The translations under genes and the position numbers were made by a program. A DNA stretch of 64,000 nt from Candidatus Latescibacterota bacterium. Its GTDB lineage: Bacteria > Latescibacterota > UBA2968 > UBA8231. The notes below the pieces were generated by a model. That model was not told the origin of the DNA. It saw only the letters and a list, made by a program, of their open reading frames with translations, and did no database searches. The stretch is taken from the NCBI GenBank assembly GCA_965221775.1, contig CBDCSU010000005.1, positions 192,001-256,000 on the forward strand. The letters are read 5' to 3'. This document shows positions 23,172-38,900 of this stretch, one piece after another; positions within the stretch are counted from its first letter, which is position 1; every line of letters starts with the position of its first letter.

Positions 23172-25958
23172 TCAAACCCCCGGGAACCCGGGAAAGGCCC
23201 GCTGCAGGACCCGCCCGGTGTGCGAGTGCGGACAGGCGGCGACCTCCCGCGGGGGGCCCGTCACCACCACCCGGCCGCCGTCGCCCCCGGCCCCCGGGCC
23301 GAGATCGACGACGTGGTCGGCGGCGGCGATCACGTACGGGTCGTGCTCGACGACGAGGACCGTGTCGCCGCGGTCGACCAGGCGCTGGAGCAGCTCCACG
23401 AGCAGGGCCGTGTCGCAGCGGTGCAGCCCGGAGGTGGGCTCGTCCAGCAGGTAGAGGGTGCGCTCCACCGCCGGCCGGCCGAGCTCGGCGGAGAGCTTCA
23501 CCCGCTGCGCTTCGCCGCCGCTGAGCCGGCCCGCCGGCTGACCGAGGCGGAGGTACCCCAGGCCGAGGTCGGCCAGCAGATCCAGGCGCCGGGCGGCCTC
23601 GGGCACGTTGGCGAACCGGAGCCGCGCCTCGGCCACGCTCAGCTCCAGCACCTCGGCGATCGACAGCCCGCCGAAGCGGACCTCCAGGACCTCCCGCCGG
23701 TAGCGGGTGCCCGCGCAGCGGCCGCAGGGAAGGGGCAGGTCCTCCAGGTCCAGCGCCGCCTCCGGCTCGCGGCCGGTACCGCCGCAGCGGCTGCAGGCGC
23801 CGCCGCTGTTGAAGCTGAAGTCTCCCGGACGGTAGCCGCGCAACCGGGCCTCGGGCGACTGCGCGAACAGCTCCCGCAGGACGGCCATGAGGCCGGTGCA
23901 GGTGGCCGCGTTGGAGCGCCCCGTGCGGCCGATGGGGGACTGGTCGACGGCGACCACCCGTTGCAGGGCCTCGGCCCCCCGCAGACCGTCGAAGGGCAGG
24001 GGGCGGCGTCCGGCCCCCTGCAGGCGGGCGGCCAGGGCCGGGTGCAGGGTGTGATGGACGAGACTGCTCTTGCCCGAGCCCGAGACGCCGGTGACGCTCA
24101 CCAGGCAGCCGAGGGGAAGGCGGAGATCGGCACCCTGCAGGTTGTGGCCGCGGGCGCCGAGGAGCTCGAGCCAGCCGCCGGCGCCGGCGGAGCGCCCGCG
24201 GCGGCCGGGCGGGTCTCCGGCAAGGGCCCGTCCGGTGGGGGTGCCGGCAGCCCGTGCCTCCCGGGGCGGACCCTGGTAGAGGAGGCGTCCGCCTTCGTCG
24301 CCGGCGCCGGGTCCGAGCTCCACGAGCAGGTCCGCGTCTCCGATCAGGTCGAGGTCGTGCTCGACGACGAGGACGGAGTTGCCCCCGTCCCGGAGCCGCT
24401 CAAGGGCGGCCGACAGGCGCCGGGTGTCGCGTCCGTGGAGGCCGGCGCCGGGCTCGTCGAGGACGTAGAGGACCCGGGAGAGTCCCGACCCGAGGGCGGC
24501 CACGAGCTGCAGGCGCTGCAGTTCCCCCGCCGACAGGGTCGGCGCTCTGCGGTCGAGGGTGAGGTACCCGAGTCCGAGGTCGATCATCACCTCCACGCCG
24601 CGGCGGACGACGTCCAGGATGTGGTCGGCCAGGGCCTGCTTCCCGGGGGGTACGGCGACCCCGGCGAGCCACTCGGCGGCCTCGGAGAGGGTGCGCCCCT
24701 GCAGACCGCCGAGGCTCTCGCCGTCGATGCGGACGGCGCGGGACGGAGCCGACAGCCGGCTGCCCCCGCACCCGGGGCACGGAGAGCCGGCCCCGTCCCC
24801 CTGAAGCTCCTCCAGCCAGGCCCGCTCGGCGGCGTCGTCGACGACCGCGGCTCTCGCGTCGAGCCAGCGGCGCAGGCCGGTGAACGGTTGGCCGCGGGCC
24901 CGGGGTCCCTCGCCCTCCCACAGACCCTGCACCGCCGCCTCCGGCCACTCCGAGAGAGGCTCCGACGGGTCGACCCCGGCGCGCCGGCAGAACGCCTCCA
25001 CCGTGCGCCGCAGCCGGCGATGCCCGAAGCGCTCCCACAGCACCGCCAGCGACGCCGCCGGGGGCTCGCCGGCCGACAGCAGGCGCTCGAAGGAGCTGCC
25101 CGCCGACAGCCCGGAGCCGCGGCAGTCCGGGCAGGCGCCGTCGGGGCTGTTGAAGCTGAAGAGGGCGGCGGAGATCTCGGGAAAGGCGGCGCCGCAGGCG
25201 GCGCAGGCCGGACGCACGCTGTAGCGCTCCTCGGCGCCGGTGGCCGGATCGAGGAGACCGAGGCGACCCTGGCCGAGCTGCACCGCCGCCTGCAGGGAGC
25301 CGCGCAACCGGCGCCGCATCCCGTCCCTGACGGCGACGCGGTCGACGACCACCTCCGGGGACCGGCCCACGAGGCGGGAGGCCTCCACCTCCTCCAGGAC
25401 CAGGGTCTCGGTTCCGCAGCGGATCCGCCGGTAGCCGCCGCGCTCGACCTCGGCGATCAGCTCCCGGGCGCGGGCCTCCGTGGCCGGCGGCTCCAGGGGA
25501 GCGGTCACCACCAGCCGGCTGCCCTCGGGCCGACCCGAGGCGCGCTCGAGGATCTCGTCGAAGGGTTGGGCCGCCACCGGCTGCCCGCAGTCCAGGCAGT
25601 GGGCCCGGCCCACCCGGGCCCACAGCAGACGCAGGTAGTCGGACAGTCCCGTGATCGTCGCCGCCGTCGAGCGCGACGACGGGCGGCTGCGCGCCTGGGC
25701 GATGGCCAGGGCCGGCCGCAGCCCGTCGATGCGCTGCACCCGCGGCGGCTGCAGGCGCCGGGCGAAGGCGGCGGCGGGCCCCTCCGCGGTCAGCAGGAAC
25801 CGCCGCCGGGCCTCGGCGTAGAGGGTGTCGAAGGCGAGGCTCGACTTGCCCGATCCGGAGACGCCGGTGAGGGCGATGAGCCGGCCGTGGGGAAGGTCCA
25901 GGTCCAGGGACCGCAGGTTGTGCTCGCGGGCGCCGCGGATCTCCAGCTGGTCCTTCAC
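23172..25958 (-). CDS. uvrA: UvrA-family excinuclease ATPase (divergent UvrA or UvrA paralog)
   Basis: GAREHNL, two GVSGSGKSS Walker A motifs, FSFNS, LSAGE/LSGGE signatures, LDEP, Zn-finger CxxC pairs; GTG overlaps the upstream stop. Confidence 0.8.
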   Translation of the reverse strand: MKDQLEIRGAREHNLRSLDLDLPHGRLIALTGVSGSGKSSLAFDTLYAEARRRFLLTAEGPAAAFARRLQPPRVQRIDGLRPALAIAQARSRPSSRSTAATITGLSDYLRLLWARVGRAHCLDCGQPVAAQPFDEILERASGRPEGSRLVVTAPLEPPATEARARELIAEVERGGYRRIRCGTETLVLEEVEASRLVGRSPEVVVDRVAVRDGMRRRLRGSLQAAVQLGQGRLGLLDPATGAEERYSVRPACAACGAAFPEISAALFSFNSPDGACPDCRGSGLSAGSSFERLLSAGEPPAASLAVLWERFGHRRLRRTVEAFCRRAGVDPSEPLSEWPEAAVQGLWEGEGPRARGQPFTGLRRWLDARAAVVDDAAERAWLEELQGDGAGSPCPGCGGSRLSAPSRAVRIDGESLGGLQGRTLSEAAEWLAGVAVPPGKQALADHILDVVRRGVEVMIDLGLGYLTLDRRAPTLSAGELQRLQLVAALGSGLSRVLYVLDEPGAGLHGRDTRRLSAALERLRDGGNSVLVVEHDLDLIGDADLLVELGPGAGDEGGRLLYQGPPREARAAGTPTGRALAGDPPGRRGRSAGAGGWLELLGARGHNLQGADLRLPLGCLVSVTGVSGSGKSSLVHHTLHPALAARLQGAGRRPLPFDGLRGAEALQRVVAVDQSPIGRTGRSNAATCTGLMAVLRELFAQSPEARLRGYRPGDFSFNSGGACSRCGGTGREPEAALDLEDLPLPCGRCAGTRYRREVLEVRFGGLSIAEVLELSVAEARLRFANVPEAARRLDLLADLGLGYLRLGQPAGRLSGGEAQRVKLSAELGRPAVERTLYLLDEPTSGLHRCDTALLVELLQRLVDRGDTVLVVEHDPYVIAAADHVVDLGPGAGGDGGRVVVTGPPREVAACPHSHTGRVLQRAFPGFPGV

Positions 25959-26677
25959 CGAGGCCCGTCCCCCGGCCGCCCCCGGTCCAGCTCCCGCGAA
26001 GCGCGTTCGTAGTCCTCCAGCGAGTCGATCTCGAACCACGGGAGATCGCCGGTCTCCACGGCGCGCAGGTTTCCCGACCGGATCAGGGGCCCGTACGCGG
26101 CGGTGGGATAGACCGCTTCCCCGCCTCCCTCCACCAGCCGTCCGACCTCGCGCCGAACCATCGCCGATCCGGCCTCGTCGAACCGGACCAGCTGCACGCT
26201 CACCGCCTGGGAGGCGGCCGGTGCCAGGTGCTTGCCGATCTCCGTCACCCGGCCCGAGCCGTCGATCCGCAGGTTCATCTCCCCTGCCTCCCTGGCTGCA
26301 CGGGAGTCGACGGCGATGGCGCTGCCCGGTCCCTCCCCCAGGCGCTCGAGGACGGCCGGGTCGAAGAGGATGTCGCAGTTGAACAGGAAGGCGCCGCCCT
26401 CCAGGCAGCCGAGGGCGCGGTGGAGGGACTCGATGCTGTTCGTCGTCCGCCAGTCCTCGTTGATCACGCATCGGGCCCGGCCCCCGAGATGGCGGCGCAC
26501 CTGCCCGGCCTCGTAGCCGGTGACGACGACGACGTCGCCCACGCCGATCCCCGCCAGCGCCTCGAGCTGACGGTCGATGAGGGCCCGGCCGGCCACCGGC
26601 ACCAGGCACTTCGGCCGGCCCTCGGTGAGGTGGCGGAGCCGGGTGCCGGCCCCGGCGGCGAGGATGATGGCGCGCAG
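25955..26677 (-). CDS. Phosphocholine/sugar-phosphate cytidylyltransferase family (LicC-like); probable CTG start
   Basis: In-frame LRAIILAAGAGTRLRHLTEGRPKCLV upstream of the ORF-track start; FNCDILF; EIDSLED; GGAG SD just before the CTG. Confidence 0.82.
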   Translation of the reverse strand: MRAIILAAGAGTRLRHLTEGRPKCLVPVAGRALIDRQLEALAGIGVGDVVVVTGYEAGQVRRHLGGRARCVINEDWRTTNSIESLHRALGCLEGGAFLFNCDILFDPAVLERLGEGPGSAIAVDSRAAREAGEMNLRIDGSGRVTEIGKHLAPAASQAVSVQLVRFDEAGSAMVRREVGRLVEGGGEAVYPTAAYGPLIRSGNLRAVETGDLPWFEIDSLEDYERASRELDRGRPGDGPR

Positions 26678-26922: not shown

Positions 26923-27684
26923 TTGAACGCACTGATCCTGGCCGCCGGCCGCGGACGCCGCCTCCTGCCGTACACCTCCGAGCGCCCCAAGTGCCTCTTG
27001 CAGGTGGGGCCGTGCACGATCCTCGAGCACCAGCTCCGGCGCCTCTCGGCGGCGGGGGTGGAACGGGTGACCATCGTCGCCGGCTTCGGGGCCGAGGCGG
27101 TGCGCCGCCGGGCGCAAGCCTGCGGCCCCGACGTGCGGGTGGTCTTCAATCCCTTCTTCGCCATCTCCGACAACCTGGTCAGCCTGTGGTCGGCGCGCTC
27201 CGAGATCGGCGAGGACACGCTGCTGCTCAACGGCGACAACGTCTTCCACCCCGCCGTCCTGGAGCCCCTGCTCGACGCCGACCCCGGGCCCTGCACCCTC
27301 CTCGTGCACCGGAAGTCCGCCTACGACGAGGACGACATGAAGGTGGCGCTCCGCGGCGGCCGCCTGGCCGCCATCGGCAAGGACCTCCTTCCCGCGCAGG
27401 CACAGGCCGAGTCGATCGGCATCATGCGCATCGCCGGCGACGGCAGCCGCCTGCTGCGCCTCGTTCTCGAGGAGGCGGTGGAGGACGCCGACGCCATGCA
27501 CGGCTTCTACATCGACGGCGTGCGGCGCATGGTCGAGGCCGGATGCCCCGTCCGCTGCGCCGACATCGGCAGCCTGCCGTGGTCGGACATCGACACCGAC
27601 GAGGACCTGCTCGAGGTGCGCCTCCACGTGCAGGCGTACGAGGCCGGCCACCCGGCGGCCTCGGCGGTGCGGGAGCCGGCATGA
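26923..27684 (+). CDS. Phosphocholine/sugar-phosphate cytidylyltransferase family (LicC/IPCT-like)
   Basis: TTG start; ALILAAGRGRRL...PKCLL, LNGDNVF, DEDDMKV, ESIG, DIDTDEDL. Confidence 0.87.
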   Translation: MNALILAAGRGRRLLPYTSERPKCLLQVGPCTILEHQLRRLSAAGVERVTIVAGFGAEAVRRRAQACGPDVRVVFNPFFAISDNLVSLWSARSEIGEDTLLLNGDNVFHPAVLEPLLDADPGPCTLLVHRKSAYDEDDMKVALRGGRLAAIGKDLLPAQAQAESIGIMRIAGDGSRLLRLVLEEAVEDADAMHGFYIDGVRRMVEAGCPVRCADIGSLPWSDIDTDEDLLEVRLHVQAYEAGHPAASAVREPA

Positions 27685-29048
27685 CCGGCGGACTGCTGCT
27701 GTTCGAGGACAGCCCCCGCGGCGCCTGGACCGCGGGCTGCCGCTTCGGCGGTCTCACCACCCTCGAGCGCGGCATCCTGACCATGGCCCGGGCCGGGGTG
27801 GACCGCCTCCTCGTGGCCCTGCCCCCGGGGCTCTCCCCCGCTGCCGGGCGGCGGGTCCGCCGGCTGGATATCGACCTGGAGATCGCTGCCTGGGGGGATT
27901 CGCCGCGCACCACCTTCGGCCCCTCCGACGAGGTGCTGGTCCTGCTGGGCGACCACGTCCACCACCACTCCTCCCTCACGGCCCTGGTCGAGTCCGGCGC
28001 TTCGGGCGACGGGCTGGTGGTGCAGGTCTCGCCCGCGCCCGGCCAGGAGGGGCTCGCCTTCCTCGGCCCGGACGGGGCGACGGGCGGCGGTCCCCGGGGG
28101 GTCAGCACGGGGGCTCTGCTCTGCGACGGCTCCCTGCGACCGCACGAGGTCGTCGGCCGCGGCGGGTCCGCCCTCGAGTTCCTCCGCCGCCGGGCCGCCG
28201 GCCGCGGGGTGCGCACCACCGAGGGCGATCCGTCCCTGTGGCGCCGCGTCGAGGACCGCCGCGGCGCCCGGCAGGCCAGGGCGATGCTCTTCGGGCAGGT
28301 GACCAAGAAGACGAGCGGCCCCGTCTCGCGCCACATCAACGCCCGGCTGTCGATCCCCATCAGCAAGGTGCTGGTCGAGACCGGCCTGTCGCCGCACCTG
28401 GTGACGGTCCTCTTCGTGCTGACCACCGGCCTCGCCGCCGCCTGGCTGATCTCGGATCCGCAACCGTACTGGCGGCTGGCCCTGGCGGGGTGCCTGTGGC
28501 AGATGGCGGCCGTCCTCGACCGCTGCGACGGGGAGATCGCCCGGGTCAAGCTTTGCGAGTCCAGGTTCGGCGCCTGGTTCGACACGGTGACCGACAACCT
28601 GGCCTACGTCGCCGCCTACGCCGCCTTCCTCAAGGCCGCCCACGGGCTCCACCCCGGGCAGCCCCTCTACCTCTACGCCGGCCTGTCGGCGGTGGCCGCC
28701 ATGTTCCTCAGCCTCGGGGTGATGTACCACTACGCTTTGCGCACCGGGTCCGGGTCGCTGCAGAACTACATCGTCGGCTTCGCGCGCCACGTGCCGCAGG
28801 AGGAGAAGGGCGCCCTCTACCGCGCCCTCGAGCGCTACGCCTTCCTGTCGAAGCGCGACTCCTTCGCCTTCGTGCACTTCGTCCTCGCCCTCCTCGGCGC
28901 CTTCGACCTGATCTACCTGTTCACGGTGGGAGGCCTGCACGTGGTCGCCCTCGGAGTGCTGCTGTCGCAGGGCAAGATGCTCGCCGCCCACCAGCGCCGC
29001 TCCGGGGCGGCGGCGGAAGGCCTTCCGCCCGAGGTCGGCGGACGGTGA
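27681..29048 (+). CDS. CDP-alcohol phosphatidyltransferase with degenerate N-terminal nucleotidyltransferase-like domain
   Basis: DRCDGEIAR....SRFGAWFDTVTD matches the CDP-AP signature; GPVSRHINARLS; TM helices; ATGA coupling. Confidence 0.88.
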   Translation: MTGGLLLFEDSPRGAWTAGCRFGGLTTLERGILTMARAGVDRLLVALPPGLSPAAGRRVRRLDIDLEIAAWGDSPRTTFGPSDEVLVLLGDHVHHHSSLTALVESGASGDGLVVQVSPAPGQEGLAFLGPDGATGGGPRGVSTGALLCDGSLRPHEVVGRGGSALEFLRRRAAGRGVRTTEGDPSLWRRVEDRRGARQARAMLFGQVTKKTSGPVSRHINARLSIPISKVLVETGLSPHLVTVLFVLTTGLAAAWLISDPQPYWRLALAGCLWQMAAVLDRCDGEIARVKLCESRFGAWFDTVTDNLAYVAAYAAFLKAAHGLHPGQPLYLYAGLSAVAAMFLSLGVMYHYALRTGSGSLQNYIVGFARHVPQEEKGALYRALERYAFLSKRDSFAFVHFVLALLGAFDLIYLFTVGGLHVVALGVLLSQGKMLAAHQRRSGAAAEGLPPEVGGR

Positions 29049-30106
29049 GGGTCATCCGCTTCCTCCTGCCGGGCCTGGGACTGCTGCTGCTCGGCGGTCT
29101 GGTCGGCGCCCTCGGGGTGGACGAGATCCTCCACAACCTGGCGGTCATGCGCTGGGCCTTCCTCCACGTCGTCCTCCTGGCCCTCGCGTGGCACGTGACC
29201 AACTCGCTGGCCTGGAGCTGCGCCTTCCCGGCCGACGGCTTTCGCCCGCGCCTGTCCCTCCTGTTCAGGTGCAAGCTCGCCGGCGAGGCCGTCAACCAGC
29301 TGACGCCCCTGGCCAACCTCGGGGGCGAGCCCCTCAAGGCCTTCCTGCTCCGCCGCCAGTCGCCGGTCTCGCGCGGACTGGCCTCGGTGGTGGTCAACAA
29401 GGCGGCCCAGGTCTTCACCGGGCTGCTGTTCACGGCCGCGGGGCTGGGCCTGGTGACCTACCACTGGGAGGTGCCCCTGGCGGTGCCCATGCCGGTGCGC
29501 GCCGGTCTGACCCTCCTCCTCCTGGCCGCCGGCCTCCTGACCTGGTCGGCGTACCGCAGCCACGGGCGCATGTTCTCGGCGCTCCTCGTCCTCGCCCGCC
29601 GCTGCGGCCTCGGCCTGGAGAGGATCGAACGCCTGCGCGCCCGGGCCGCGGACATCGACCACCACATCTCCCGCTTCTTCCGGCAGCACAAGGGGCGCTT
29701 CGGCCTGGTCCTGCTGTTCCACGCCTGCGGCTGGCTCCTGGGCGCCTGCGAGACTTTCGTGATCCTCCGGGCCCTCGGCGCCGGCATCGACTTCGAGATC
29801 GCCTTCCTCATCGCCTCGCTGACGGTGGTGATCAACGGCCTGTTCTTCTTCATGCCGTCCAACATCGGCGTCCTCGAAGGGGGGCAGGTCTTCCTGTTCC
29901 TCACTCTCGGACTGGACCCGGCCGCGGGCCTGTCCCTCGGCATCGTCAAGCGCATGCGCAAGCTCCTGTGGATCTCCGTGGGCTGGTTGTTCCTCACCCA
30001 CCTGAGCCGGTCCATGGGCCGCGCCGCGGCTCCGGTGGCCGGTCCGGTGCCCGCCGCGGCCGCTCCGGGCGCGGAGCGGGCCCTGCGTCAGGGCGCGATC
30101 CCATGA
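29045..30106 (+). CDS. Lysylphosphatidylglycerol-synthase TM / UPF0104 flippase-like membrane protein (HpnL-like)
   Basis: AGEAVNQLTP...GGEPLK, PSNIGVLEG, KRMRKL; multiple TM helices. Confidence 0.82.
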   Translation: MRVIRFLLPGLGLLLLGGLVGALGVDEILHNLAVMRWAFLHVVLLALAWHVTNSLAWSCAFPADGFRPRLSLLFRCKLAGEAVNQLTPLANLGGEPLKAFLLRRQSPVSRGLASVVVNKAAQVFTGLLFTAAGLGLVTYHWEVPLAVPMPVRAGLTLLLLAAGLLTWSAYRSHGRMFSALLVLARRCGLGLERIERLRARAADIDHHISRFFRQHKGRFGLVLLFHACGWLLGACETFVILRALGAGIDFEIAFLIASLTVVINGLFFFMPSNIGVLEGGQVFLFLTLGLDPAAGLSLGIVKRMRKLLWISVGWLFLTHLSRSMGRAAAPVAGPVPAAAAPGAERALRQGAIP

Positions 30107-31470
30107 GCATCCGGCCGCTCCTCTGTCTTGCCGCCCTGGGCGCCCTCCTCCACGCACGGCCGGACCCCGTGCGGGCCGCGGCCCCGGAAGGGGGCCCCGT
30201 GTATGGTCTCGACCAGTTGGTGGCCATGGCCCGCGAGGGCAGCCCGGATGTGGCCGCGGCGCGCTGGAACCTGCACGACGCCCGCGCGCAACTGCGCCAG
30301 GCCCGCGCCGCCCGTTTCCTGCCGCGGCTCCGCCTCGAGGGCTTCGGCGGCCTCGTCCCCGACGCCCGGGGCGATGTCTTCCATCCGCCGCGGGACACCT
30401 CCGGCGTGCGCCCCCTCGGTCCCTTCGTGCGCACCGAGCTCGAGTTCACCCAGCCCCTGTACACCTTCGGGCAGCTCTCCAGCCTGCGGACCGCCGCCGA
30501 GCACGGCCTGGAGGTCGAACGGGCCGCCTTCGAGGAGACCCGCCAGGGCCTCGTCCTCGAGGTCAAGGAGCTCTACTGGGGGATGCTCCTGGCCCGCGAC
30601 CTGGCGGCCCTCGCCCGGCGCCTGCGCCAGGAACTGGAGGACCGCGAGTCGGAGGTCGACCCCGACGACCCCGACCTCCCCCTGGGCGTGCCCTACCGCC
30701 TGCAGCTGGCCCTGCTGGAGCTCCGCGACCGCGAGGCCGAGCTGGAGGACCAGCTGCGCCTGGCGCGTTCGGCCCTGGCGTGGAAGGCGGGCCTTCCGGA
30801 GGACGAGCCCTTCGAGCTGGCCGAGACCCGGCTCGAGCCGGTGGGCGCCGAGGTGCCTCTCCTCGACGAGTTGCTGGGGCGGGCGCGCAGAGAGCGCCCG
30901 GACTGGCGCCGCCTGCGCGCCGGAGTGGCCGCCCGCCGGGCCCAGGAGCAGGCCGCGCGCAGCGCCGGGTACCCCCAGCTGTTCCTCGCCGGGGGCCTGC
31001 GCTACGCCGCGGCCCCGGGGCGGACGGATCAGCGGAACCCTTTCGTCAAGGACGAGTTCAACCTCTTCAGCGGGGCCGTCGTGCTGGGCCTGCGCCAGTC
31101 CTTCGAGATCGGCCTCATCGGCGCCGAGGTCGACCGGGCCCGGGCCCGGCGCATGCAGCTGGAGGCCCGGGAGCGCAGCGCCGCCCAGGGCATCCGCCTC
31201 GAGATCGACCAGGCCCTGAAGGAGTTCGAGGGGGCCCGGAGGGAGTTGGACTCGGCCCGGCGGGGCCGTGACCTGACGCGGGAGTGGCTGCGGATCGCGC
31301 GCGACGAGTACGACCTGGACCCGGCCCGGATCAAGGACCTGGTGAGCGCCTTCGAGGGCTTCGCCGACGCCGAGCAGACCTACCACGAAGCCGTGTACGA
31401 GCACAACGTGAGGCTCGCCGGCCTCGAGCGCGTCGTCGGCGCCGCCCTCGGCCCGGGGAGCCCGGAATGA
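30103..31470 (+). CDS. TolC-family outer membrane protein
   Basis: Signal peptide, LPRL, QPLYTFG, VKELYW, RPD, YPQL, helical coiled-coil repeats, LERVVG end. Confidence 0.85.
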   Translation: MSIRPLLCLAALGALLHARPDPVRAAAPEGGPVYGLDQLVAMAREGSPDVAAARWNLHDARAQLRQARAARFLPRLRLEGFGGLVPDARGDVFHPPRDTSGVRPLGPFVRTELEFTQPLYTFGQLSSLRTAAEHGLEVERAAFEETRQGLVLEVKELYWGMLLARDLAALARRLRQELEDRESEVDPDDPDLPLGVPYRLQLALLELRDREAELEDQLRLARSALAWKAGLPEDEPFELAETRLEPVGAEVPLLDELLGRARRERPDWRRLRAGVAARRAQEQAARSAGYPQLFLAGGLRYAAAPGRTDQRNPFVKDEFNLFSGAVVLGLRQSFEIGLIGAEVDRARARRMQLEARERSAAQGIRLEIDQALKEFEGARRELDSARRGRDLTREWLRIARDEYDLDPARIKDLVSAFEGFADAEQTYHEAVYEHNVRLAGLERVVGAALGPGSPE

Positions 31471-32738
31471 GGCTCCGGGGCCTCGCCTCGGGCCTGGTCT
31501 GGCTGGCCGCCACCGGCGCCGCCGGCGCCGCGGGGGAGGCCTGGCTGGCGGCCGAGGTGGAACGGCTGAACCTGGAGGGCCGCAGGGCTCCCGAGGCGGC
31601 GGCGGCGGCCTTCGTCGACCGCGCCGTGGACCTTCCCGGCTTCGCCGAGCTCTGCTTCGGCGACTACCTGGAGGACAGCCTCGCCGAGCTCGAGGGTCAC
31701 ATGACCCGCTCCGACTTCCGGGCCTACGTCGAAGCCCACCGCGGGCGGCTGCTGGAGTCGCTGCGGCAGCGGCTCGTCGACGACTTGGGACCCCGCCTCG
31801 CCGCCGGGCTGCCGGCCCTGGAGGCGGTCTCCTCCGAGTTCGACGGAGACACCGGCCGCGCCGAGATCACCGTCCCCGGAGGGGGGCCGCTCCGCTGCCA
31901 CCTGCGGCGCACGGAGGACGGCTGGCGCCTGCGCGACCTGCGCCTCCAGGACCGCCGCCTGAGCCGCATCTACCGGCGGCGGTTCGAGGACGTCCTCGAC
32001 CGCCGCGACTCCCCCGCCGTCCTCGAGGCCCGGCTCGCCGGCCGCGAGTACGTCGTCCTCGAGGACTTCTCCTTCTCCGAGCCGGGCGGCCTGCCCATGG
32101 GCTGGGGCTGGCGGGACCGGGACGACGACGCGGAGAAGCCCTACCGGGTGCGCCGGCACGGCCGCGACGCCTTCGTCGAGGCCCGGGTGTCGGACTCGTC
32201 GATCCTGATCCTGAGCCTGGCCCAGTGGAACCCGCGCCGGTATCCGATCCTGACCTGGTGCTGGCGGGCGGACCAGTTGCCGGAGGGCGGGGACGAGCGC
32301 TTCGGGGCCACCAACGACAGCGCCGCGGGTTTGTACGTGTTCTACTCGCTGACCTGGCTGGGCGCGCCCCGGCACGTCAAGTACGTGTGGAGCACGACCC
32401 TGCCCCTCGACACGGTGGGGCGCCGGAACCGCATCTTCCGTCCCTGGTACATCGTCGCCGAGAGCGGCGCCGAGAACCTGGGGCGGTGGACCTTCGAGAC
32501 CGCCGACCTCGAGCGCGACTACGGCCGCACCTACGGGGGCGACCCGAAGGACCGGACCGTGGGGCTCGGCCTGCTGACCGACGCCAACAACACCGGGACT
32601 CGGGCCGAGGCCTGTTACGGGGAGCTGCGCGCCTGGACCCGCCAGGCCTGGGAGCAGGGCCGCGTCGTCGACCACTGCGGCGGCCTCCGGGGCCCCCCCG
32701 CCCTCACCGGCTCCACCTCACGGGAGGTCACGCCATGA
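31467..32738 (+). CDS. Periplasmic fusion: MlaC-like N-domain plus DUF3047 C-domain
   Basis: Signal peptide; VDLPGFAELCFG and GWRLRDL (MlaC-like); YPILTWCWR, KYVWS, DLERDY, LLTDANNT (DUF3047-like). Confidence 0.7.
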   Translation: MRLRGLASGLVWLAATGAAGAAGEAWLAAEVERLNLEGRRAPEAAAAAFVDRAVDLPGFAELCFGDYLEDSLAELEGHMTRSDFRAYVEAHRGRLLESLRQRLVDDLGPRLAAGLPALEAVSSEFDGDTGRAEITVPGGGPLRCHLRRTEDGWRLRDLRLQDRRLSRIYRRRFEDVLDRRDSPAVLEARLAGREYVVLEDFSFSEPGGLPMGWGWRDRDDDAEKPYRVRRHGRDAFVEARVSDSSILILSLAQWNPRRYPILTWCWRADQLPEGGDERFGATNDSAAGLYVFYSLTWLGAPRHVKYVWSTTLPLDTVGRRNRIFRPWYIVAESGAENLGRWTFETADLERDYGRTYGGDPKDRTVGLGLLTDANNTGTRAEACYGELRAWTRQAWEQGRVVDHCGGLRGPPALTGSTSREVTP

Positions 32739-33349
32739 AGACCGTCATCTGCCTGCTCATGGCGCAGGCGCCCCTCGCCCTGCTCGCCGAGACGCCGCCC
32801 GCCGGCACGGCCACCGACTTCCTGCGGAGCCACGACGCCCGCGTGCGGGAGGTCGTCCTCGCCGGCCCGGACACCTTGTCCGGCGAAGACCGGACCCGGG
32901 TGCAGGACCTGATCGCCGAGGCCTTCGACTTCCGCGAGCTGGCGCGGCTCTCCCTCGGGGACCACTGGCGGGAACGCACCGCCGAGGAGCGCGGCGAGTT
33001 CGTGGACATCTTCCGCCGCATCATCGAGAGGCAGAACTTCGACCTCTTCGTGCGCTATCACCGGGAGGGACGGATCACCTACACCTCCGAGGAGGTCGAC
33101 GAGGAGGGGCGGGCGGTGGTCCTCGGCGAGGTGCCGCTGAAGCAGGAGACCCGGCGGATCGCCTACTACCTGCACCGGCCATCGACGGGGGCCGGGGGAG
33201 GCTGGCGCATCTACGACCTCGCCGTGGACGGGGCCGGCACGGCCGAGGCCAACCGCCGCACCTACACCCGCTACATCGGCCGCCACTCGTACCCGGCCCT
33301 CCTCGACGCCCTGCGCCGCAAGCTGGACCGGCTCGAAGGGCGGGGCTGA
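32735..33349 (+). CDS. MlaC/Ttg2D/HpnM-family periplasmic lipid-binding protein
   Basis: FDFRELARLSLGDHW, EFVDIF, WRIYDLAVDG, NRRTY. Confidence 0.85.
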   Translation: MKTVICLLMAQAPLALLAETPPAGTATDFLRSHDARVREVVLAGPDTLSGEDRTRVQDLIAEAFDFRELARLSLGDHWRERTAEERGEFVDIFRRIIERQNFDLFVRYHREGRITYTSEEVDEEGRAVVLGEVPLKQETRRIAYYLHRPSTGAGGGWRIYDLAVDGAGTAEANRRTYTRYIGRHSYPALLDALRRKLDRLEGRG

Positions 33350-33355
33350 GAGCCG

Positions 33356-35797
33356 GTGGTCAGCGGCGGGCGCATGCGGATCAGCTACGAGCGCATCGTC
33401 CACTACGTCTTCCATCACCACCTGGGGATCATCCTCGTCTCCCTTGTGGTCTCCCTCCTCGCCGGATCGCTGGCGGCGCGCCTGAAGATCAAGGCCGACT
33501 CGGCCGACCTGCTGCCGGACGACTACGTGAGCGTCCGCGAGCTGAACCGCATCAAGGAGCGCGTCGGCGGCGCCGCGCCGCTGATGGTGATCGTCACCGG
33601 CCACGACCTGGCGGCCTGCGTGGAGTTCATGCACGTCCTGGCCGACTCCCTCGAGGGCAGTCCGATGCTGAGCTCCATCGTGCGCGGGCGCATGGCCCAG
33701 GCCGACTTCCTGAGCCGCAACCGCCTGCTCTACATGGACTTGGCCGACCTGCGGGAGCTGGAGGCGCGGGTGGAGGAGCAGGTCGAGCTGGAGAAGCTGC
33801 GGCGGTCCCCCCTGTACATCGGCCTGGACGACGAGGAGGATCCCCTCGAGCTCGACGACCTGGAGGCCCGCTACGCCGGCGCCAGCGAGGGCTTTCACCG
33901 CGACTACTACCTGACCAAGGAGGGCAACGGCGTCATCCTGCGGGTCTACCCGGCGGGGGTGATCACCGACATGACCTTCAGCCGGCGCCTCCTGTCGGGC
34001 ATCCGCTCGACGATCGACGCCATCGATCCCCAGCGCTTCCACGCCAGCACCGAGGTCTCCTTCTCGGGCAGCTTCAACAACGCCTTCACCCAGTACGACG
34101 TGATCGTGCAGGACCTGCGGTCGACGGCGCTCTACGCCTTCCTCGGCGTCCTCCTGCTCATCTCCCTCTACTTCCGCCAGGTCCTGTCGCCGCTCTTCGT
34201 CGTCGTCCCCCTGCTCATGAGCCTGTCGTGGACCTTCGCCCTCACCTGGCTCGTCATCGGCAACCTCAACCAGATCACCGTCTGTCTCTTCGCCATCCTC
34301 TTCGGACTCGGCATCGACTTCGGCATCCACATCTTCGCCCGTTACCGCGAGGCCCGCCGCAGGGGGCTGGAGACCGAAGCCGCCCTCGTGGAGACGGTCT
34401 GCCAGACAGGCAGCGCCCTGACCACCACGGCGGTGACCACGGCGGTGGCCTTCTTCTCGCTGCTGTTCTCCGACTTCAAGGGGTTCAGCGAGTTCGGCTT
34501 CATCGTCGGCGTGGGGATCCTGTTCTCGCTGGTGGCCATGGTCGTCATCTGCCCGGCCTTCCTCGTCCTGGCCGAGAGACTGCGGCTGATCCGCCTGGGG
34601 CAGCCGGAGGTCCCCGGCCACCTGCTGCGGCGCGGCCGCTACCCCGTGCCCCACCTCACCATGATCCTGGCCGTGGCGGCCACGGGCTACTCGTTGCTGC
34701 ACCTGGCCGACCTGCGCTTCGAGTACGACTTCAAGAAGCTCCGTCCGGACACCTCCGCCGGGGGGCCGAAGGCGAGCCTGCCCGACGAGCTGAAGGAGAC
34801 TCGCGCGCCGGCCATCGTCCTCACCGAGAACGAGGAGCAGGCGATGGCGGTGGTGGCCGAGGTCGAGAGGCGGCGCGCCGCCCACGGCGACAGCTCCACC
34901 ATCCGCTCGGTGCGCAGCGTCTACTCCCTGCTGCCCGCCGATCAGGAGGAGAAGCTGGCCATCCTCGCCGGCCTGCGGCACACCCTGGAGGAGAACGAGG
35001 ACCTCCTCGACAGCGGCACCCGCGCCCGCGTCGACTCCCTGCGGCGTTACCTGGAGGTCTCCCGGCTGCGGCTGGAGGACCTGCCCGGGGAGATGACCAA
35101 GAGCTTCTCCGGCAAGAACGGCGAGATCCTCAGCTTCGTGCAGATCAACGCCGCCGTGCCCCTGCGCGACGGGCGCAACGCCATCGCCTTCGCCCGGCAG
35201 ATCAAGGAGATCGAGACGCCCGGCGGCGGCACCTTCTTCGCCTCGAGCGCCCACATCATCTTCGCCGAGATGCTGGAGCTGATGCTCGACGACGCCGTCA
35301 AGGCGGTGGCCGTCTCGCTCATCGCCGTCACCCTGGTGCTGCTCATCGACCTGGGCAGTCTCGGGCGGAGCCTGCTCGTCCTCACGCCCCTGCTCACGGC
35401 GCTGGCCTGGGTCACGGGGTTGATGTACGTCTTCGATTTCAAGGTCAACATCTACAACATGGTCGCCTTCCCCACGATCATCGGCATGGGGATCGACAAC
35501 GCCGTGCACATGTTCCACCGCTACCGCGAGGCCGGCCCGGGATCGATGCGCCTCGTGCTGCGCACGACGGGCACGGTGCTGATGGCCACGACGCTGACGA
35601 CCATGGTCGGCTTCGCCGGCCTCGTGCCCGCCCATCACCCGGCCCTCTACTGGGTCGGCGCGGTCACGCTTCTGGGACTGGGATCCTGCTTCGTCTCAGC
35701 CGTCACCTTGTTGCCGGCGCTGCTGCAGATGCTCGAGGGGCCAAGAGAAACGGCCCGCCCCGGGAAGGCGGGGCTGCCTTCGGGGACGGGCCGCTGA
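33356..35797 (+). CDS. MMPL/RND lipid exporter (HpnN-like)
   Basis: Two RND TM repeats with GLGIDFGIH and GMGIDNAVH; FKGFSEFG; large periplasmic loops; start GTG 33356 or ATG 33374. Confidence 0.9.
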   Translation: MVSGGRMRISYERIVHYVFHHHLGIILVSLVVSLLAGSLAARLKIKADSADLLPDDYVSVRELNRIKERVGGAAPLMVIVTGHDLAACVEFMHVLADSLEGSPMLSSIVRGRMAQADFLSRNRLLYMDLADLRELEARVEEQVELEKLRRSPLYIGLDDEEDPLELDDLEARYAGASEGFHRDYYLTKEGNGVILRVYPAGVITDMTFSRRLLSGIRSTIDAIDPQRFHASTEVSFSGSFNNAFTQYDVIVQDLRSTALYAFLGVLLLISLYFRQVLSPLFVVVPLLMSLSWTFALTWLVIGNLNQITVCLFAILFGLGIDFGIHIFARYREARRRGLETEAALVETVCQTGSALTTTAVTTAVAFFSLLFSDFKGFSEFGFIVGVGILFSLVAMVVICPAFLVLAERLRLIRLGQPEVPGHLLRRGRYPVPHLTMILAVAATGYSLLHLADLRFEYDFKKLRPDTSAGGPKASLPDELKETRAPAIVLTENEEQAMAVVAEVERRRAAHGDSSTIRSVRSVYSLLPADQEEKLAILAGLRHTLEENEDLLDSGTRARVDSLRRYLEVSRLRLEDLPGEMTKSFSGKNGEILSFVQINAAVPLRDGRNAIAFARQIKEIETPGGGTFFASSAHIIFAEMLELMLDDAVKAVAVSLIAVTLVLLIDLGSLGRSLLVLTPLLTALAWVTGLMYVFDFKVNIYNMVAFPTIIGMGIDNAVHMFHRYREAGPGSMRLVLRTTGTVLMATTLTTMVGFAGLVPAHHPALYWVGAVTLLGLGSCFVSAVTLLPALLQMLEGPRETARPGKAGLPSGTGR
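35743..35793 (-). terminator. Probable intrinsic terminator of tRNA-Gly, embedded in the MMPL 3' end
   Basis: CGGCCCG/CGGGCCG, CCCC/GGGG and GAAGGC/GCCTTC stems, followed by TTTCTCTT on the minus strand. Confidence 0.55.
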
Positions 35798-35802
35798 TTC
35801 GG

Positions 35803-35878
35803 TGGAGCGGGAGACGAGACTCGAACTCGCGACAACCACGTTGGCAACGTGGGGCTCTACCAACTGAGCTACTCCCGC
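35803..35878 (-). tRNA. tRNA-Gly (GCC)
   Basis: GCGGGAGTAGCTCAGTTGGTAGAGC...CCACG-TTGCCAA-CGTGG...GAGTTCGAGTCTC...TCCCGCTCCA; 76 nt with encoded CCA. Confidence 0.97.
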
Positions 35879-35891
35879 GATCGGGAGGAGG

Positions 35892-35921
35892 AATATAGAG
35901 AGTGGAAAAAAAGAGCGTCAA
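35892..35921 (-). promoter_or_regulatory. sigma70 promoter for tRNA-Gly
   Basis: TTGACG-18 nt-TATATT; overlaps the start of the divergent CDS. Confidence 0.65.
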
Positions 35922-38900
35922 GGCCGTGGGCGCCGCCTGCATCGCCCTGGCGGCAGGGCTCGGCTGCGGCGGCGACGGCGGCCGCGTCCTGCCGCCGCAG
36001 GCGCGCTGGCACAACAACCAGGGCGTCGTCTACATGGACCAGCACAACTACGTCCGGGGCCGCGAGCACTTCGAGGAGGCCGCCCGGCTCGCCCCGGGTT
36101 ACGCCACGGCCCGCGCCAATCTCGGCATCGCCCTCTACAGCCTGGGGAAGTACGACAGCGCCCGCGTCGCCCTGGGCCAGGCCCTGGAGCGCGACGGCGG
36201 TCACCTGCACGCCCTCTACACCCTGGGCCTCATCGACCACGCCCAGGGTCGTGACTACGCCGCCGCCCTCGACCGCTTCCGGAAGGTGGCCGCCCGCGAC
36301 GGCGAGGACCCCCTCGTGTGGTACTTCCTCGGCCGGACCCATGCCAAGGTCGGCCGGGCGGACTCCGCGGTGGCCGCCTACGAGCGCGCCATCGCCCTGG
36401 ACCCCACCCACCTGTCGGCCCACTACGCCCTCGCCCAGGAGCTGCGCCAGCAGGGCGACCTGGAGGCCTGGCGGCGGACCCTGGACCGCTTCGACCAGCT
36501 GAGCCGGGCCGGCGTCGAGGGCGTCTCCTCCGCCTACCAGGGTCAGGGCAAGTACGCCGAGGCCCTGGCCGAGGGCCGCTTCGGAGGCGGCGGCGCCGGA
36601 AGCGGCGGCGGCCTGCGCTTCCGGGCGGCGGCGGACCTGGCCGCCGGTGAAGGTCCCCTGCTCTTCCTCACCCCCGTCGACGCCGACGGCGACGGGGACG
36701 CCGACGTGGTGGCCGGCACCGGCCGCGGGCCGCTGCTGCTGAACAACGGCGACGACGGCCTCCTGGCGGGCGCGGCCTGGGACCTCGAAGGGGTTCCGGC
36801 GGCCCGGGGCCTGGTCTTCGCCGACGTCGATGACGACGGCGACGCCGACGCCGCCTGGTCCGGCGACGGTCTGCGCCTCCTCCGGCAGGACGAGGGCGGG
36901 CGCTTCCGGCTCTCGGACGAGTCCCTGGCGCCGGCCCCGGGGACGGCGCTCTTCGGGGATGTCGATCACGACGGCGACGCCGACCTGATCGCCGCCGGTC
37001 CCGGCCTGGTCCTGTGGGCCAACGACGGCACGGGAGCCTTCGCCGACGCCACCGCCGCCGCCCGCCTGGCCGTCCCCGGCGTCGAGGCGGCTGTCCTGTC
37101 CGACTTCGACGACGACCGCGACGTCGACATCCTCGCCGGGGGCCGGTCCCTCGGCCTCTACGGCAACAACCGCGACGGCACCTTCACCGACGCGGCCGGC
37201 CGCCGGGGCCTGGAAGCGGGCGGGGTCACCGGCCTCGCCGTGGCCGACCTCGACCCGGACGGGCGCATGGACGTGCTGGTGGTGACCGCCGACGGCGCCC
37301 GCCTGCACGCCAACCGCGGCACCGCCTTCGAGGCGGTCCCGGTGCCGGCTCCGGACGGCGCCCGCCAGGTCCTGCCCGCCGACTTCGACAACGACGGCGA
37401 CCTCGACCTGCTGTGGGTCGGTCCCGAGGGCGCCCGGACCGCCGTTGGCCAGGGCTCCGACTTCCAGCCCGCGGGCGCGGATCTCGGACCGGGGCCGTGG
37501 GCCATCCTCGACGCCGACAGCGACGGCCGCCTCGACGTGCTCGCCGGCCGCAAGAGGTGGCTCAACGACAGCGACGCCGGGAACTGGCTCGCCGTCGACC
37601 TGTCGGGCCGCAACAGCAACCCCGACGGCTTCGGCGCCAAGGTGGTGGTCTCCACCGCCCTCGGTCAGCAGAAGCGGGAGCTGCGCGGCGGCGCCGGGGA
37701 CCCGCCGCTGCTGCACTTCGGCCTGGCCGGGTCCGACTCGGTGGAGTTCGTCAGCGTCCTCTGGCCCAGCGGCGTGCGTCAGACCGAGCTGGCCTCCGCC
37801 GCCGGCCGGCGCCTGGAGCTGATGGAGCTCGACCGCAAGGGCACCTCCTGCCCCGTCCTCTACGCCTGGGACGGCAGCGGCTTCGGCTTCGTCTCCGACT
37901 TCCTCGGAGGCGCCATCATCGGCTACCTGACCGCCCCCGGGCAGTACTACACGCCGGACACGGACGAGTACCTCCCCCTGCGCCGCCTGGAGGCCAAGGA
38001 CGGGAGCTACGTGCTGCAGGTGGCCAACCAGCTCGAGGAGATCGTCTACCTCGACGCCGCGGAACTGGTCGCCGTCGACCACCCCGCCGGCCTGCGCCTG
38101 GAGCCGAACGAGCGCCTGTTGTCCGCACCCCCCTACCCCCCCTTCCGGACCTATGCCGTGTCGCGGACCCGCCCGCTGGCGAGCGCGCGCGACGGCGAGG
38201 GCCGCGACGCGGGGGCGGAGCTGGCCCGCATCGACGACATCTGGTACGAGGGGTTCGCGCGCAGCGACATCCACGGCTACGCCGGCGAGTCCACCCTGAT
38301 CCTGGATCTGGGCGACTTGAGGGACTGGCCGCACCCGGTCCTGCTGGCCCACGGCTGGGTCGACTACGCCCATTCCAGCAGCAACTGGGCAGCTTCCCAG
38401 CGCGGCCTGGGGCGGGCGCCGCCGCGGCTGGAGGTCGACCACGGCGAGGGCTGGCGCCTGGCGACCGCCGACATGGGCACCCCCGCCGGACTGCCGAAGA
38501 CGATGCTCGTCGATCTGGACGGGCTCTTCCCGGCCGGCACGGAGACGGCGCGTCTGCGCATCACCACCCGGGCCTGCGTCTACTGGGACCAGTTCCTCCT
38601 CGGGCAGGCGGAGCCGGAGGCGCCGCGCCGCGTCCACCGGCGCCGGTTCGAGGCCGACCTGCACTGGCGCGGTTACCCCGCCCACGAGTCGGTCCGCGGC
38701 ACCTTCGCCTTCCGCTACCACTACGAGCGGCTGCGCACCGAGGCCCTCTGGGGGACCCACGCCGGCGCCTTCACGCGCCACGGCGACGTGACCGAGCTGG
38801 TGGCCGCCGTGGACGACCGCTTCGCCATCCTGCGCCACGGCGACGAGCTGACCCTCGAGGTCGAAGCCGGCGCCTTCCCGCCGGTGCCGGCGGGCTGGGA

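Follow-up and report, generated by a model that had tools for sequence, protein, structure and literature searches.

Introduction

The operon described here lies at positions 26,923 to 35,797, on the forward (+) strand, of a 64-kb stretch of DNA from a Candidatus Latescibacterota bacterium (contig CBDCSU010000005.1, positions 192,001 to 256,000; the whole of this stretch is called the window below). Its seven genes, g1 to g7, encode a nucleotidyltransferase, a cytidine diphosphate (CDP)-alcohol phosphotransferase, an HpnL-like membrane protein, a TolC-family protein, a periplasmic protein in which an MlaC-like domain is fused to DUF3047, a further MlaC-like protein, and an HpnN-like transporter of the resistance-nodulation-division (RND) superfamily. 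We tentatively favour the view that this is a lineage-specific envelope-lipid operon and that its product would be an exported polyol-phosphate lipid, a view to which we would give somewhat less than an even chance. No described system has this combination of genes, and none was found described in the literature searched (supplements and most subscription journals being outside its coverage). The systems that the locus resembles in part are taken first.

For the enzymes, the best sequence relatives of g2 are AF2299 and the bifunctional inositol-phosphate cytidylyltransferase (IPCT)/DIPP synthase (DIPPS) of Archaeoglobus fulgidus (structures 4o6m and 4mnd). According to the available text of PMC4634129, an N-terminal cytidylyltransferase-like domain sets these two proteins apart, neither of them processes lipids, AF2299 binds CDP-glycerol, and an architecture of six transmembrane (TM) segments goes with soluble acceptors, enzymes with lipid acceptors having three to four extra C-terminal helices. 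The rare N-terminal domain and the six-TM core are both shared by g2. What differs is that the N-terminal domain of g2 lacks the nucleotide-binding segment AAGxGxR...PK, separate nucleotidyltransferases being encoded beside it, and that AF2299 and DIPPS make, or are thought to make, soluble products, whereas the partners of g2 are membrane, periplasmic and outer-membrane proteins. An NTP-transferase and a CDP-alcohol phosphatidyltransferase also occur together in the putative alternative inositol-lipid cluster of Bacteroides vulgatus and Prevotella, the likeness here lying in the pairing as described. In the available part of PMC9246714 (Heaver et al. 2022) a gene annotated as lysylphosphatidylglycerol synthase is placed near both Bacteroides inositol-lipid clusters; the cluster described there adjoins an inositol-phosphate synthase gene and includes a HAD hydrolase, both of which are missing from the window, while DUF3047, MlaC, MMPL and TolC genes do not figure in it, and the pathway itself is unconfirmed.

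For transport, one counterpart is the hopanoid module, HpnL, HpnM and HpnN being the best NCBIfam matches of g3, g6 and g7 respectively. As far as the available text of PMC12324291 goes, an RND pump that hands lipid to an MlaC-like shuttle (HpnN to HpnM) has been proposed for hopanoids as a hypothesis only, and the function of HpnL is unknown. The resemblance to hpnL/M/N remarked upon in an initial annotation of this DNA is real, but all three scores fall under the curated cut-offs, linkage to a squalene-hopene cyclase or to other hpn genes is not seen in the window, and the outer-membrane partner of the hopanoid module is the MlaA-like HpnS, whereas here it is a TolC-family protein. With the Mla pathway the operon shares MlaC-fold proteins (two here), but the window has no MlaA, MlaD (MCE), MlaE, MlaF or MlaB, and the inner-membrane partner is an ABC transporter in the one case and an RND protein in the other. 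In tripartite RND pumps an RND-superfamily protein and an OEP/TolC-family protein are likewise found in one operon; here, however, the RND protein is of the HAE3/HpnN/MMPL type, there is no membrane-fusion adaptor, and the place in which an adaptor gene might be looked for is taken by MlaC-like carriers. Lacking in each case a defining feature, the operon belongs neither to the hpn module nor to the Mla pathway or the tripartite efflux pumps, and it is likewise no IPCT/DIPPS system. By analogy, the synthetic half may work like a Kennedy-type or DIPPS-type CDP-alcohol pathway and the transport half like the proposed HpnN-HpnM shuttle.

Sequence analysis

Genes in the window, which has a GC content of 72%, were called using third-position GC periodicity, and their products were annotated by Pfam and NCBIfam profile searches with curated cut-offs, a further 46 proteins of the window being searched with Pfam. 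An alignment of g2 homologues was used to scan 185,579 species genomes, which gave 77 loci (numbered below with the prefix L), and the proteins of the window were compared with all of these by tblastn. The g2 tree is a quick maximum-likelihood tree made with IQ-TREE, from which L018, L049, L065 and L077 were left out as being short or containing X or stop.

Organisation and proposed function of the operon

The seven genes, all consecutive frames on the + strand with third-position GC periodicities of 0.94-0.99, are as follows.

26923..27684, + strand: g1, LicC/IPCT-type nucleotidyltransferase, 253 aa, TTG start (Pfam NTP_transf_3, 2.8e-15)
27681..29048, + strand: g2, AF2299/DIPPS-type CDP-alcohol phosphotransferase, 455 aa (Pfam CDP-OH_P_transf, 7.8e-08)
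29045..30106, + strand: g3, HpnL-like/MprF-flippase-like polytopic membrane protein, 353 aa (Pfam LPG_synthase_TM, 6.4e-28)
30103..31470, + strand: g4, TolC-family outer-membrane factor, 455 aa (Pfam OEP, 3e-39, two repeats)
31467..32738, + strand: g5, periplasmic fusion protein, 423 aa (Pfam DUF3047, 2.4e-26)
32735..33349, + strand: g6, MlaC/HpnM-like periplasmic protein, putatively lipid-binding, 204 aa, signal peptide (Pfam MlaC, 5.8e-25)
33356..35797, + strand: g7, HpnN-like RND (HAE3/MMPL) inner-membrane transporter, 813 aa (Pfam MMPL, 2.4e-38)

They adjoin one another at the following junctions.

27681-27684, + strand: g1/g2, ATGA overlap of 4 nt
29045-29048, + strand: g2/g3, GTGA overlap of 4 nt
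30103-30106, + strand: g3/g4, ATGA overlap of 4 nt
31467-31470, + strand: g4/g5, ATGA overlap of 4 nt
32735-32738, + strand: g5/g6, ATGA overlap of 4 nt
33349 to 33356, + strand: g6/g7, g6 stop at 33349 and g7 GTG start at 33356, a 6-nt gap

These junctions bear out the operon that the initial annotation had described, namely seven genes on one strand of which the first six overlap and the last follows close behind. A run of five overlaps is nevertheless no more than an ordinary tight operon, not improbable in itself, because 4-nt overlaps are frequent in this 72% GC genome, at least eight more being seen between genes called in the window. All of the domain assignments made at that time have likewise stood up to Pfam and NCBIfam annotation of each protein, supplemented by Foldseek and hhalign in the case of the N-terminal domain of g5, whose proposed MlaC-like nature is confirmed by the comparisons described below.

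In the reading that we favour, g1, and possibly g0 (a second nucleotidyltransferase encoded upstream on the opposite strand), would activate a phospho-alcohol, for which inositol phosphate or glycerol phosphate is the guess, as a CDP-alcohol; g2, working on the cytoplasmic side of the inner membrane, would then create a phosphodiester linkage on the polar portion of a membrane lipid; g3 would bring the resulting molecule across to the periplasmic leaflet; there its head group would be bound or processed by the DUF3047 jelly roll of g5; and the g7 pump, the carriers represented by g6 and the N-terminal domain of g5, and the TolC-family protein g4 would carry the lipid to the outer membrane. We infer the substrates, the lipid nature of the product, the flipping, the direction of transport and the roles of the DUF3047 and TolC-like proteins, and the words “flipping”, “extraction” and “delivery” are taken from family names only.

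Several lines of evidence point in this direction. The MlaC-DUF3047 fusion physically links the synthetic core to the lipid-carrier half, more directly than adjacency does; overlaps run across the supposed boundary between the two modules (at g3/g4 and g4/g5), and the transport genes are interleaved with g5; the core triad of CDP-alcohol phosphotransferase, HpnL-like and DUF3047 genes recurs in both of the classes of related locus described below, a third context being that of two MAGs outside the lineage (L075 and L076) with CDP-alcohol phosphotransferase and DUF3047 genes; the solved structures closest to g7 belong to the hopanoid pump HpnN and to MmpL3/4/5, which export lipids or siderophores, and those closest to g6 belong to phospholipid-binding MlaC-family proteins; and, in related loci, genes of the Ger/PlsA ether-lipid type lie beside the cluster, while in Bacteroidota a combined nucleotidyltransferase and CDP-alcohol phosphotransferase is paired with LPG_synthase_TM.

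The CDP-alcohol phosphotransferase

The product of g2 is a class I CDP-alcohol phosphotransferase: it scores 33.3 bits against Pfam CDP-OH_P_transf (PF01066; cut-off 22), and the class signature DxxDGxxAR...GxxxDxxxD is present in TM2-TM3 as D280xxD283G284xxA287R288...G297xxxD301xxxD305, invariant in 25 aligned family members. When a profile of the family is compared with the PDB the best matches are the A. fulgidus IPCT/DIPPS (4mnd, 1.1e-23) and AF2299 (4o6m, 1e-21), followed by phosphatidylinositol-phosphate (PIP) synthases at 2.2e-10 and weaker; against the NCBIfam IPCT/DIPPS model NF041135, on the other hand, g2 reaches only 83.4 bits where membership would call for 580. The N-terminal domain (approximately residues 1-190) is cytidylyltransferase-like and can be aligned to nucleotidyltransferases, with no Pfam match to a nucleotidyltransferase at E<=0.01; its AAGxGxR...PK segment, which is kept in g0, in g1 and in a Bacteroidota fusion protein, has been deleted or replaced. 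The domain is thus degenerate when set beside the competent N-terminal cytidylyltransferase of the bifunctional IPCT/DIPP synthase, and has probably lost that activity. Six hydrophobic segments lie between residues 241 and 429 and none after them, corresponding to a six-TM core.

Because every NCBIfam match of g2, and of a second CDP-alcohol phosphotransferase found in related loci, is to an enzyme of inositol phosphate (DIPPS, PIP synthase or archaetidylinositol-phosphate synthase), in each case far under the cut-off, inositol phosphate is our leading guess for the head group, with glycerol phosphate second. The full-length relatives of g1, which include 4jd0 and the IPCT/DIPPS model, point towards the same head group.

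These same relationships bring in an altogether different reading, which is that g1 and g2 make a soluble solute of the di-myo-inositol-phosphate, glycerophosphoinositol or diglycerol-phosphate type, the genes downstream being either unrelated or concerned with exporting that solute. The best PDB and NCBIfam relatives of g2, with which it shares both the type of N-terminal domain and the six-TM core, are after all IPCT/DIPPS and AF2299, of which (as cited above from part of PMC4634129) neither processes lipids and the second binds CDP-glycerol; furthermore, sponge-associated Latescibacterota metagenome-assembled genomes (MAGs) are reported, in the available text of PMC12993501, to have a complete myo-inositol pathway. 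Set against this, g2 is followed by HpnL-like and periplasmic DUF3047 genes in all 58 of the evaluable loci of the lineage (L022 being an exception), DUF3047 is fused to a lipid-carrier fold, and the window contains no inositol-phosphate synthase. An inositol-phosphate synthase usually accompanies DIPP genes, and such solutes are known from hyperthermophiles, whereas the titles of the related MAGs name groundwater, lake and marine sources. On balance a soluble product seems to us improbable.

As to the six-TM core, CDP-alcohol phosphotransferases of the cardiolipin synthase type act on lipid and yet have a small core, and a polar acceptor would also be available in the head group of a membrane lipid or in a lipid-linked glycan.

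The nucleotidyltransferases

The TTG start of g1 at 26923 agrees with 36 orthologues of 250-261 aa and places the nucleotidyltransferase domain at residue 3, and the nucleotide-binding motif AAGxGxR...PK is intact. By sequence g1 matches, in the PDB, LicC (1jyk, 4e-11, over the N-terminal half only), 4jd0 (1.3e-09, full length), the PntC fusion 6pd1 (3.5e-08, full length) and the A. fulgidus IPCT 2xme (1.4e-05). Of these, 4jd0 carries only the database label “nucleotidyl transferase”; we take it to be a Thermotoga inositol-phosphate cytidylyltransferase. Against the NCBIfam model NF041135 (IPCT/DIPPS) the score of g1 is 52.5 bits, the cut-off being 580. The gene is presumed to encode an enzyme that makes a CDP-alcohol.

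Upstream of g1 and divergent from the operon lies another gene of the same type, which was absent from the gene set of the initial annotation:

25955..26677, - strand: g0, second LicC/IPCT-type nucleotidyltransferase, 240 aa (Pfam NTP_transf_3)

All of its NCBIfam matches are under their cut-offs, and it keeps the AAGxGxR...PK segment. Its start is probably CTG, because there is no ATG, GTG or TTG upstream of the nucleotide-binding motif and because the codon homologous to the start, which is ATG in 27 of 34 orthologues, reads CTG, with GGAG before it, both in the window and in its four closest relatives (L001, L002, L003 and L009). An orthologue of g0 lies upstream on the opposite strand in 34 class A loci. 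The stop of g0 itself overlaps by 4 nt the start of a gene for a 928-aa uvrA-like ABC ATPase (23172-25958).

The membrane, periplasmic and outer-membrane proteins

The membrane protein g3 passes the cut-off of the NCBIfam “flippase-like domain” model TIGR00374 (67 bits, cut-off 43), while its score of 142.3 bits against HpnL (TIGR03476) is under the cut-off of 195.65; it follows g2 in every locus that has at least 38% g2 identity and enough sequence, except L022. The start of g4 at 30103 agrees with 31 orthologues of 445-456 aa; the protein has a signal peptide and no lipobox, scores under the cut-offs of the TolC and NodT subfamily models, and is present in all 31 evaluable class A loci. For g7 the scores are 294 bits against HpnN TIGR03480 (cut-off 751.85), 206 bits against HpnN NF052374 (cut-off 1100) and 207 bits against HAE3 (cut-off 352), and the nearest solved structures are those of HpnN (6wu0, 5.2e-33; 5khn, 1.8e-31), followed by MmpL4/5/3.

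By sequence, g6 belongs to the MlaC family and hence to the MlaC/Ttg2D fold (Pfam MlaC, 88 bits, cut-off 26), its score against HpnM (TIGR03481) being 57.6 bits with a cut-off of 160.1; a profile of its family matches the phospholipid-binding proteins 11hy (1.9e-12) and 2qgu (6e-12) and, at 5.6e-05, E. coli MlaC. In g5, a signal or anchor helix is followed by an MlaC-like domain (approximately residues 25-190) and by a DUF3047 jelly roll (approximately 195-405), the latter scoring 92.9 bits against Pfam DUF3047 (PF11249; cut-off 27). The MlaC-like part has no Pfam match. It is related to the g6 family by hhalign (probability 97.2%, E 4e-11), and in an AlphaFold2 model of g5 with a predicted local distance difference test (pLDDT) score of 91 it matches MlaC/Ttg2D structures by Foldseek (2qgu, TM score 0.68; 7vr6, 0.58), there being also a weak sequence match of g5 to 2qgu. 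The N-terminal domain of g5 and g6 can thus both be assigned to the MlaC/Ttg2D fold, for which lipid binding is predicted. When the N-terminal domain of g5 was searched on its own it found 11 proteins, all of them close relatives of similar length with DUF3047.

The DUF3047 part of g5 is strongly conserved, with C265 and C404 invariant or nearly so and with Trp, Arg, Asp, Glu, Lys, Tyr or Ser unchanging at many sites, a pattern that suggests a specific pocket or active site. The signal or anchor sequence and the two conserved cysteines would fit a periplasmic location. No function of DUF3047 was found in print, the family being named in a marine-metagenome survey. The family is large: a library clustered at 50% identity has 1537 representatives that match it at E<=0.001, of which 44 do so at E<=1e-30. 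In most members the domain makes up a stand-alone protein of 205-290 aa; among the 150 best representatives, about 18 reach 400 aa or more and have it at the C-terminal end. In a plasmid collection it occurs in 8 records. Prediction of a complex between g3 and the DUF3047 domain of g5 (residues 192-410) gave a score of 0.21, the mark being 0.32, a result that we weigh neither for nor against binding.

In both of the predicted models (whole g5, and DUF3047 alone) the domain is a beta jelly roll, and Foldseek matches it to CFAP20 in microtubule doublets, NDUFAF1, CBM4/28/30, GH11/12 and the beta domain of glucuronyl C5-epimerase; look-alikes in the ESM Atlas came from DUF3047 clusters only. The Foldseek matches were rejected as a source of a functional analogue, because they are generic jelly rolls with TM scores of at most 0.6 and identities of at most 15%. 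Those among them that involve carbohydrate-active proteins (CBM4/28/30, GH11/12 and the epimerase domain) do, however, bear on a second alternative, that the operon decorates a surface glycoconjugate. On this account the CDP-alcohol phosphotransferase would add a polyol phosphate to the glycan of a lipid-linked intermediate (resembling those of lipopolysaccharide, capsule or teichoic acid), which g3 or a MOP flippase would export; DUF3047, with its CBM-like fold, would handle the glycan in the periplasm, and the MlaC, MMPL and TolC proteins would either move the lipid-anchored product or serve some other envelope task. A six-TM CDP-alcohol phosphotransferase would suit a polar acceptor group, and the DUF3047 gene of an Ilyobacter plasmid adjoins exopolysaccharide genes. 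It must be remembered, though, that the cargoes known for MlaC-like carriers and HpnN-like pumps are small lipids and not lipoglycans, quite apart from the generic character of the structural matches.

Related loci

Of the 77 loci, 68 come, by record title, from Latescibacterota-type MAGs and have at least 38% g2 identity; these comprise 39 loci of class A, 28 of class B, and L022. Some MAGs labelled Gemmatimonadota or Handelsmanbacteria cluster with those of Latescibacterota type in the g2 tree, and the labels look inconsistent: L001, L003, L006, L007, L011, L016 and others are titled Gemmatimonadaceae, Gemmatimonadetes or “Gemmatimonas phototrophica” but group with Latescibacterota.

In class A, 31 loci extend far enough to be evaluated, and in 29 of these, with g2 identities as low as 38%, the genes g3-g7 keep the same order, so that the gene order is, as had been anticipated, conserved in other genomes, all of these being Latescibacterota-type MAGs; g1 is present in all 37 loci that have upstream sequence. 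The conserved block is wider than the operon, with metG and the uvrA-like gene upstream in many loci and genes for a TPR/FG-GAP protein and PBP1A downstream, and a tRNA-Gly lies just after the cluster in 29/29 class A loci scanned, even where the pump gene is missing. Class B has a different gene context, in which g2 is followed by g3 and then by a stand-alone DUF3047 gene in 27 of 27 evaluable loci, with a GT4 glycosyltransferase gene next after DUF3047 in 26 of 26. The triad of CDP-alcohol phosphotransferase, HpnL-like and DUF3047 genes is therefore found in all 58 evaluable loci of the lineage, in two unrelated neighbourhoods, L022 being the sole exception, and its recurrence in the different context of class B is stronger evidence than the order of genes in class A. 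Two MAGs from outside the lineage, L075 and L076, with a GC content of about 43%, combine within 10 kb a DUF3047 gene, a gene of the Ger/PlsA type and three CDP-alcohol phosphotransferase paralogues, the paralogues lying about 5 kb from DUF3047; and in the Bacteroidota loci L072 and L073 an LPG_synthase_TM gene comes after a fusion of nucleotidyltransferase and CDP-alcohol phosphotransferase. As to HAD genes, only the distant loci L075 and L077 have them.

Two further features of the related loci are listed here.

L013:5508-6749, L025:5736-7019, L019:1353-2603 and L075:541-1770: second CDP-alcohol phosphotransferase (matches to PIP-synthase and archaetidylinositol-phosphate-synthase models, 27-35 bits)
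L030:2669-8105 (- strand) and L075:5282-9534, also L076: Ger/PlsA-type gene with a conserved partner that has no Pfam match

The first of these, very divergent (about 415 aa, no Pfam match), follows g0 in 21 class A loci and occurs also in L075 and L076; the window has lost it. The second combines two BcrAD_BadFG domains with DUF2229, which the available text of PMC13159169 gives as the architecture of glycerol ester reductase. It lies beside the CDP-alcohol phosphotransferase cluster in L030, L075 and L076, and its presence there in two separate lineages hints at ether lipids.

Much of the material that bears on the glycoconjugate alternative is to be found in these loci. A MOP-family (Polysacc_synt) flippase gene lies between g0 and g1 in 16 class A loci; in L019 (3339-8842, - strand) and also in L020 the same interval holds a MOP flippase, a GINT1_N protein, a sulfotransferase and a GT4 gene, GINT1_N being the N-terminal domain of glucosamine inositolphosphorylceramide transferase (7e-40 in L019). 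To these may be added the GT4 gene after DUF3047 throughout the evaluable class B loci, the second nucleotidyltransferase/CDP-alcohol phosphotransferase pair of 21 class A loci, and the Calditrichota locus L069, where GT4, Wzz and Poly_export genes come after one that resembles g2. The operon of the window, however, neither contains nor adjoins a MOP flippase, GT4 or sulfotransferase gene, and taking everything together we regard decoration of a glycoconjugate as possible but on the unlikely side.

The synteny raises a third alternative, in which two independent modules have been kept together by descent: g0-g3 with DUF3047 would make the product, while g4, g6 and g7 would serve general lipid homeostasis of the HpnN/MlaC type, acting on bulk phospholipids or on some other lipid, and would not be specific for that product. 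The whole class A neighbourhood is indeed syntenic from metG to PBP1A, with the tRNA-Gly in 29/29, class B keeps the core without transport genes, the pump is missing from L027 and L028, and in L013-L017 DUF3047 occurs without the MlaC domain. Such independence sits poorly with overlaps of the translational-coupling kind that cross the boundary at g3/g4 and g4/g5, with the interleaving of transport genes and DUF3047 (g4-g5-g6-g7), and with the very existence of the MlaC-DUF3047 fusion, and it appears to us fairly improbable.

Weight of the evidence

Returning to the exported polyol-phosphate lipid, a number of observations have to be counted against it. The first group concerns the enzymes. 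Lipids are not processed by AF2299 and AfDIPPS, the nearest characterised relatives of g2, and g2 ends after six TMs, for which reasons the enzyme by itself gives no ground for dismissing a soluble product; all of the NCBIfam equivalog scores lie far under their cut-offs, and because of this no substrate can be carried over by homology; and the Pfam scan of the 64-kb window found no inositol-phosphate synthase. The MOP flippase, GT4 and sulfotransferase genes of some loci fit a glycoconjugate as well as they fit a lipid.

The second group concerns the link between synthesis and transport, and here the initial annotation, which had seen in one operon everything from activation to delivery at the outer membrane, holds for the genes, the domains and the operon but less well for the whole as a functional unit. 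The order of genes in class A is weak functional evidence because it sits inside a larger syntenic block of one phylum-level lineage; it is largely inherited, and the linkage of synthesis to transport could equally be inherited synteny. L027 and L028 keep everything except the MMPL pump g7. Near the class B cores there are no TolC, MlaC or MMPL genes (27 of 27 evaluable loci) and, in 27 of 28 loci, no nucleotidyltransferase within 10 kb, the latter fitting a CDP-diacylglycerol donor as well as a CDP-alcohol donor. Since class B forms a single clade in the quick g2 tree (SH-aLRT 100), nested among class A lineages, the core without transporters would represent one evolutionary event and not many, probably a loss or relocation. 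In L022 (PBRM01000055.1), the only such locus of the 68, a g2 homologue at 50% identity stands alone, the 3.8 kb before it and the 10 kb after it being free of the other cluster genes. Nor does either of the two DUF3047 neighbourhoods read elsewhere, on a Cupriavidus chromid and an Ilyobacter plasmid, have a CDP-alcohol phosphotransferase beside DUF3047, and for that reason the link between the two would be specific to a subfamily of DUF3047. Finally, neither the operon nor the window has a membrane-fusion (HlyD-type) gene to couple the RND pump with the TolC-like channel.

Surroundings of the operon

The following features lie downstream of the operon.

35803..35878, - strand: tRNA-Gly(GCC), convergent with the operon (Rfam tRNA, 67 bits; ARAGORN)
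35921-35892, - strand: sigma-70-like promoter
35902-39102, + strand: TPR, FG-GAP, UnbV_ASPIC protein, 1066 aa, conserved in this downstream position in nearly all class A loci
39116-41299: PBP1A, after the TPR/FG-GAP gene

The tRNA-Gly marks the 3' end of the operon and parts it from the TPR/FG-GAP gene at 35902. At the gathering threshold Rfam found tRNA only, with no riboswitch before g1, and a terminator scan gave 3 sites compared with 2.3 in shuffled sequence, i.e. no excess. Elsewhere in the window, five well-supported frames have no Pfam family at E<=1e-4, at 41310-43016 (-), 43216-43926 (+), 44360-44866 (-), 47448-47858 (+) and 59261-60019 (-).

As had been stated from the outset, the window contains no hopanoid or sphingolipid synthase, the Pfam scan having found neither a squalene-hopene cyclase nor a serine palmitoyltransferase-like gene. 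Hopanoid, sphingolipid and phosphonate cargoes were set aside, without being excluded, as the window lacks these two genes and also a phosphoenolpyruvate mutase; with regard to phosphonates, the similarity of g1 to PntC is no better than its similarity to IPCT.

Implications

How specific lipids reach the outer membrane in diderm bacteria is a problem that is largely unsolved, the HpnN-HpnM shuttle being, in the available text of PMC12324291, only a proposal. In the operon a single transcription unit of 9 kb specifies the candidate chemistry together with a candidate flippase, a pump, two candidate carriers and an outer-membrane protein, so that the whole route could be rebuilt in a laboratory host, and it provides a first way into the function of DUF3047 and of LPG_synthase_TM proteins of the HpnL type. 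A further suggestion is that in bacteria enzymes of the AF2299 type, which have no assigned physiological role, may act on membrane-bound substrates.

In its most specific form the proposal would be of a new trans-envelope route, in which an AF2299-type enzyme makes a polyol-phosphate glycerolipid (of inositol or glycerol phosphate, and possibly ether-linked), an HpnL-like protein flips it, DUF3047 recognises its head group, and an HpnN-like pump passes it by way of MlaC-like carriers to a TolC-family acceptor with no membrane-fusion adaptor. Stated so fully we think it unlikely; if true, it would provide the first functions for DUF3047 and for HpnL-type proteins and a role in lipid delivery for a TolC homologue. 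The lineage is uncultured, and a distinctive head group could serve as a biomarker.

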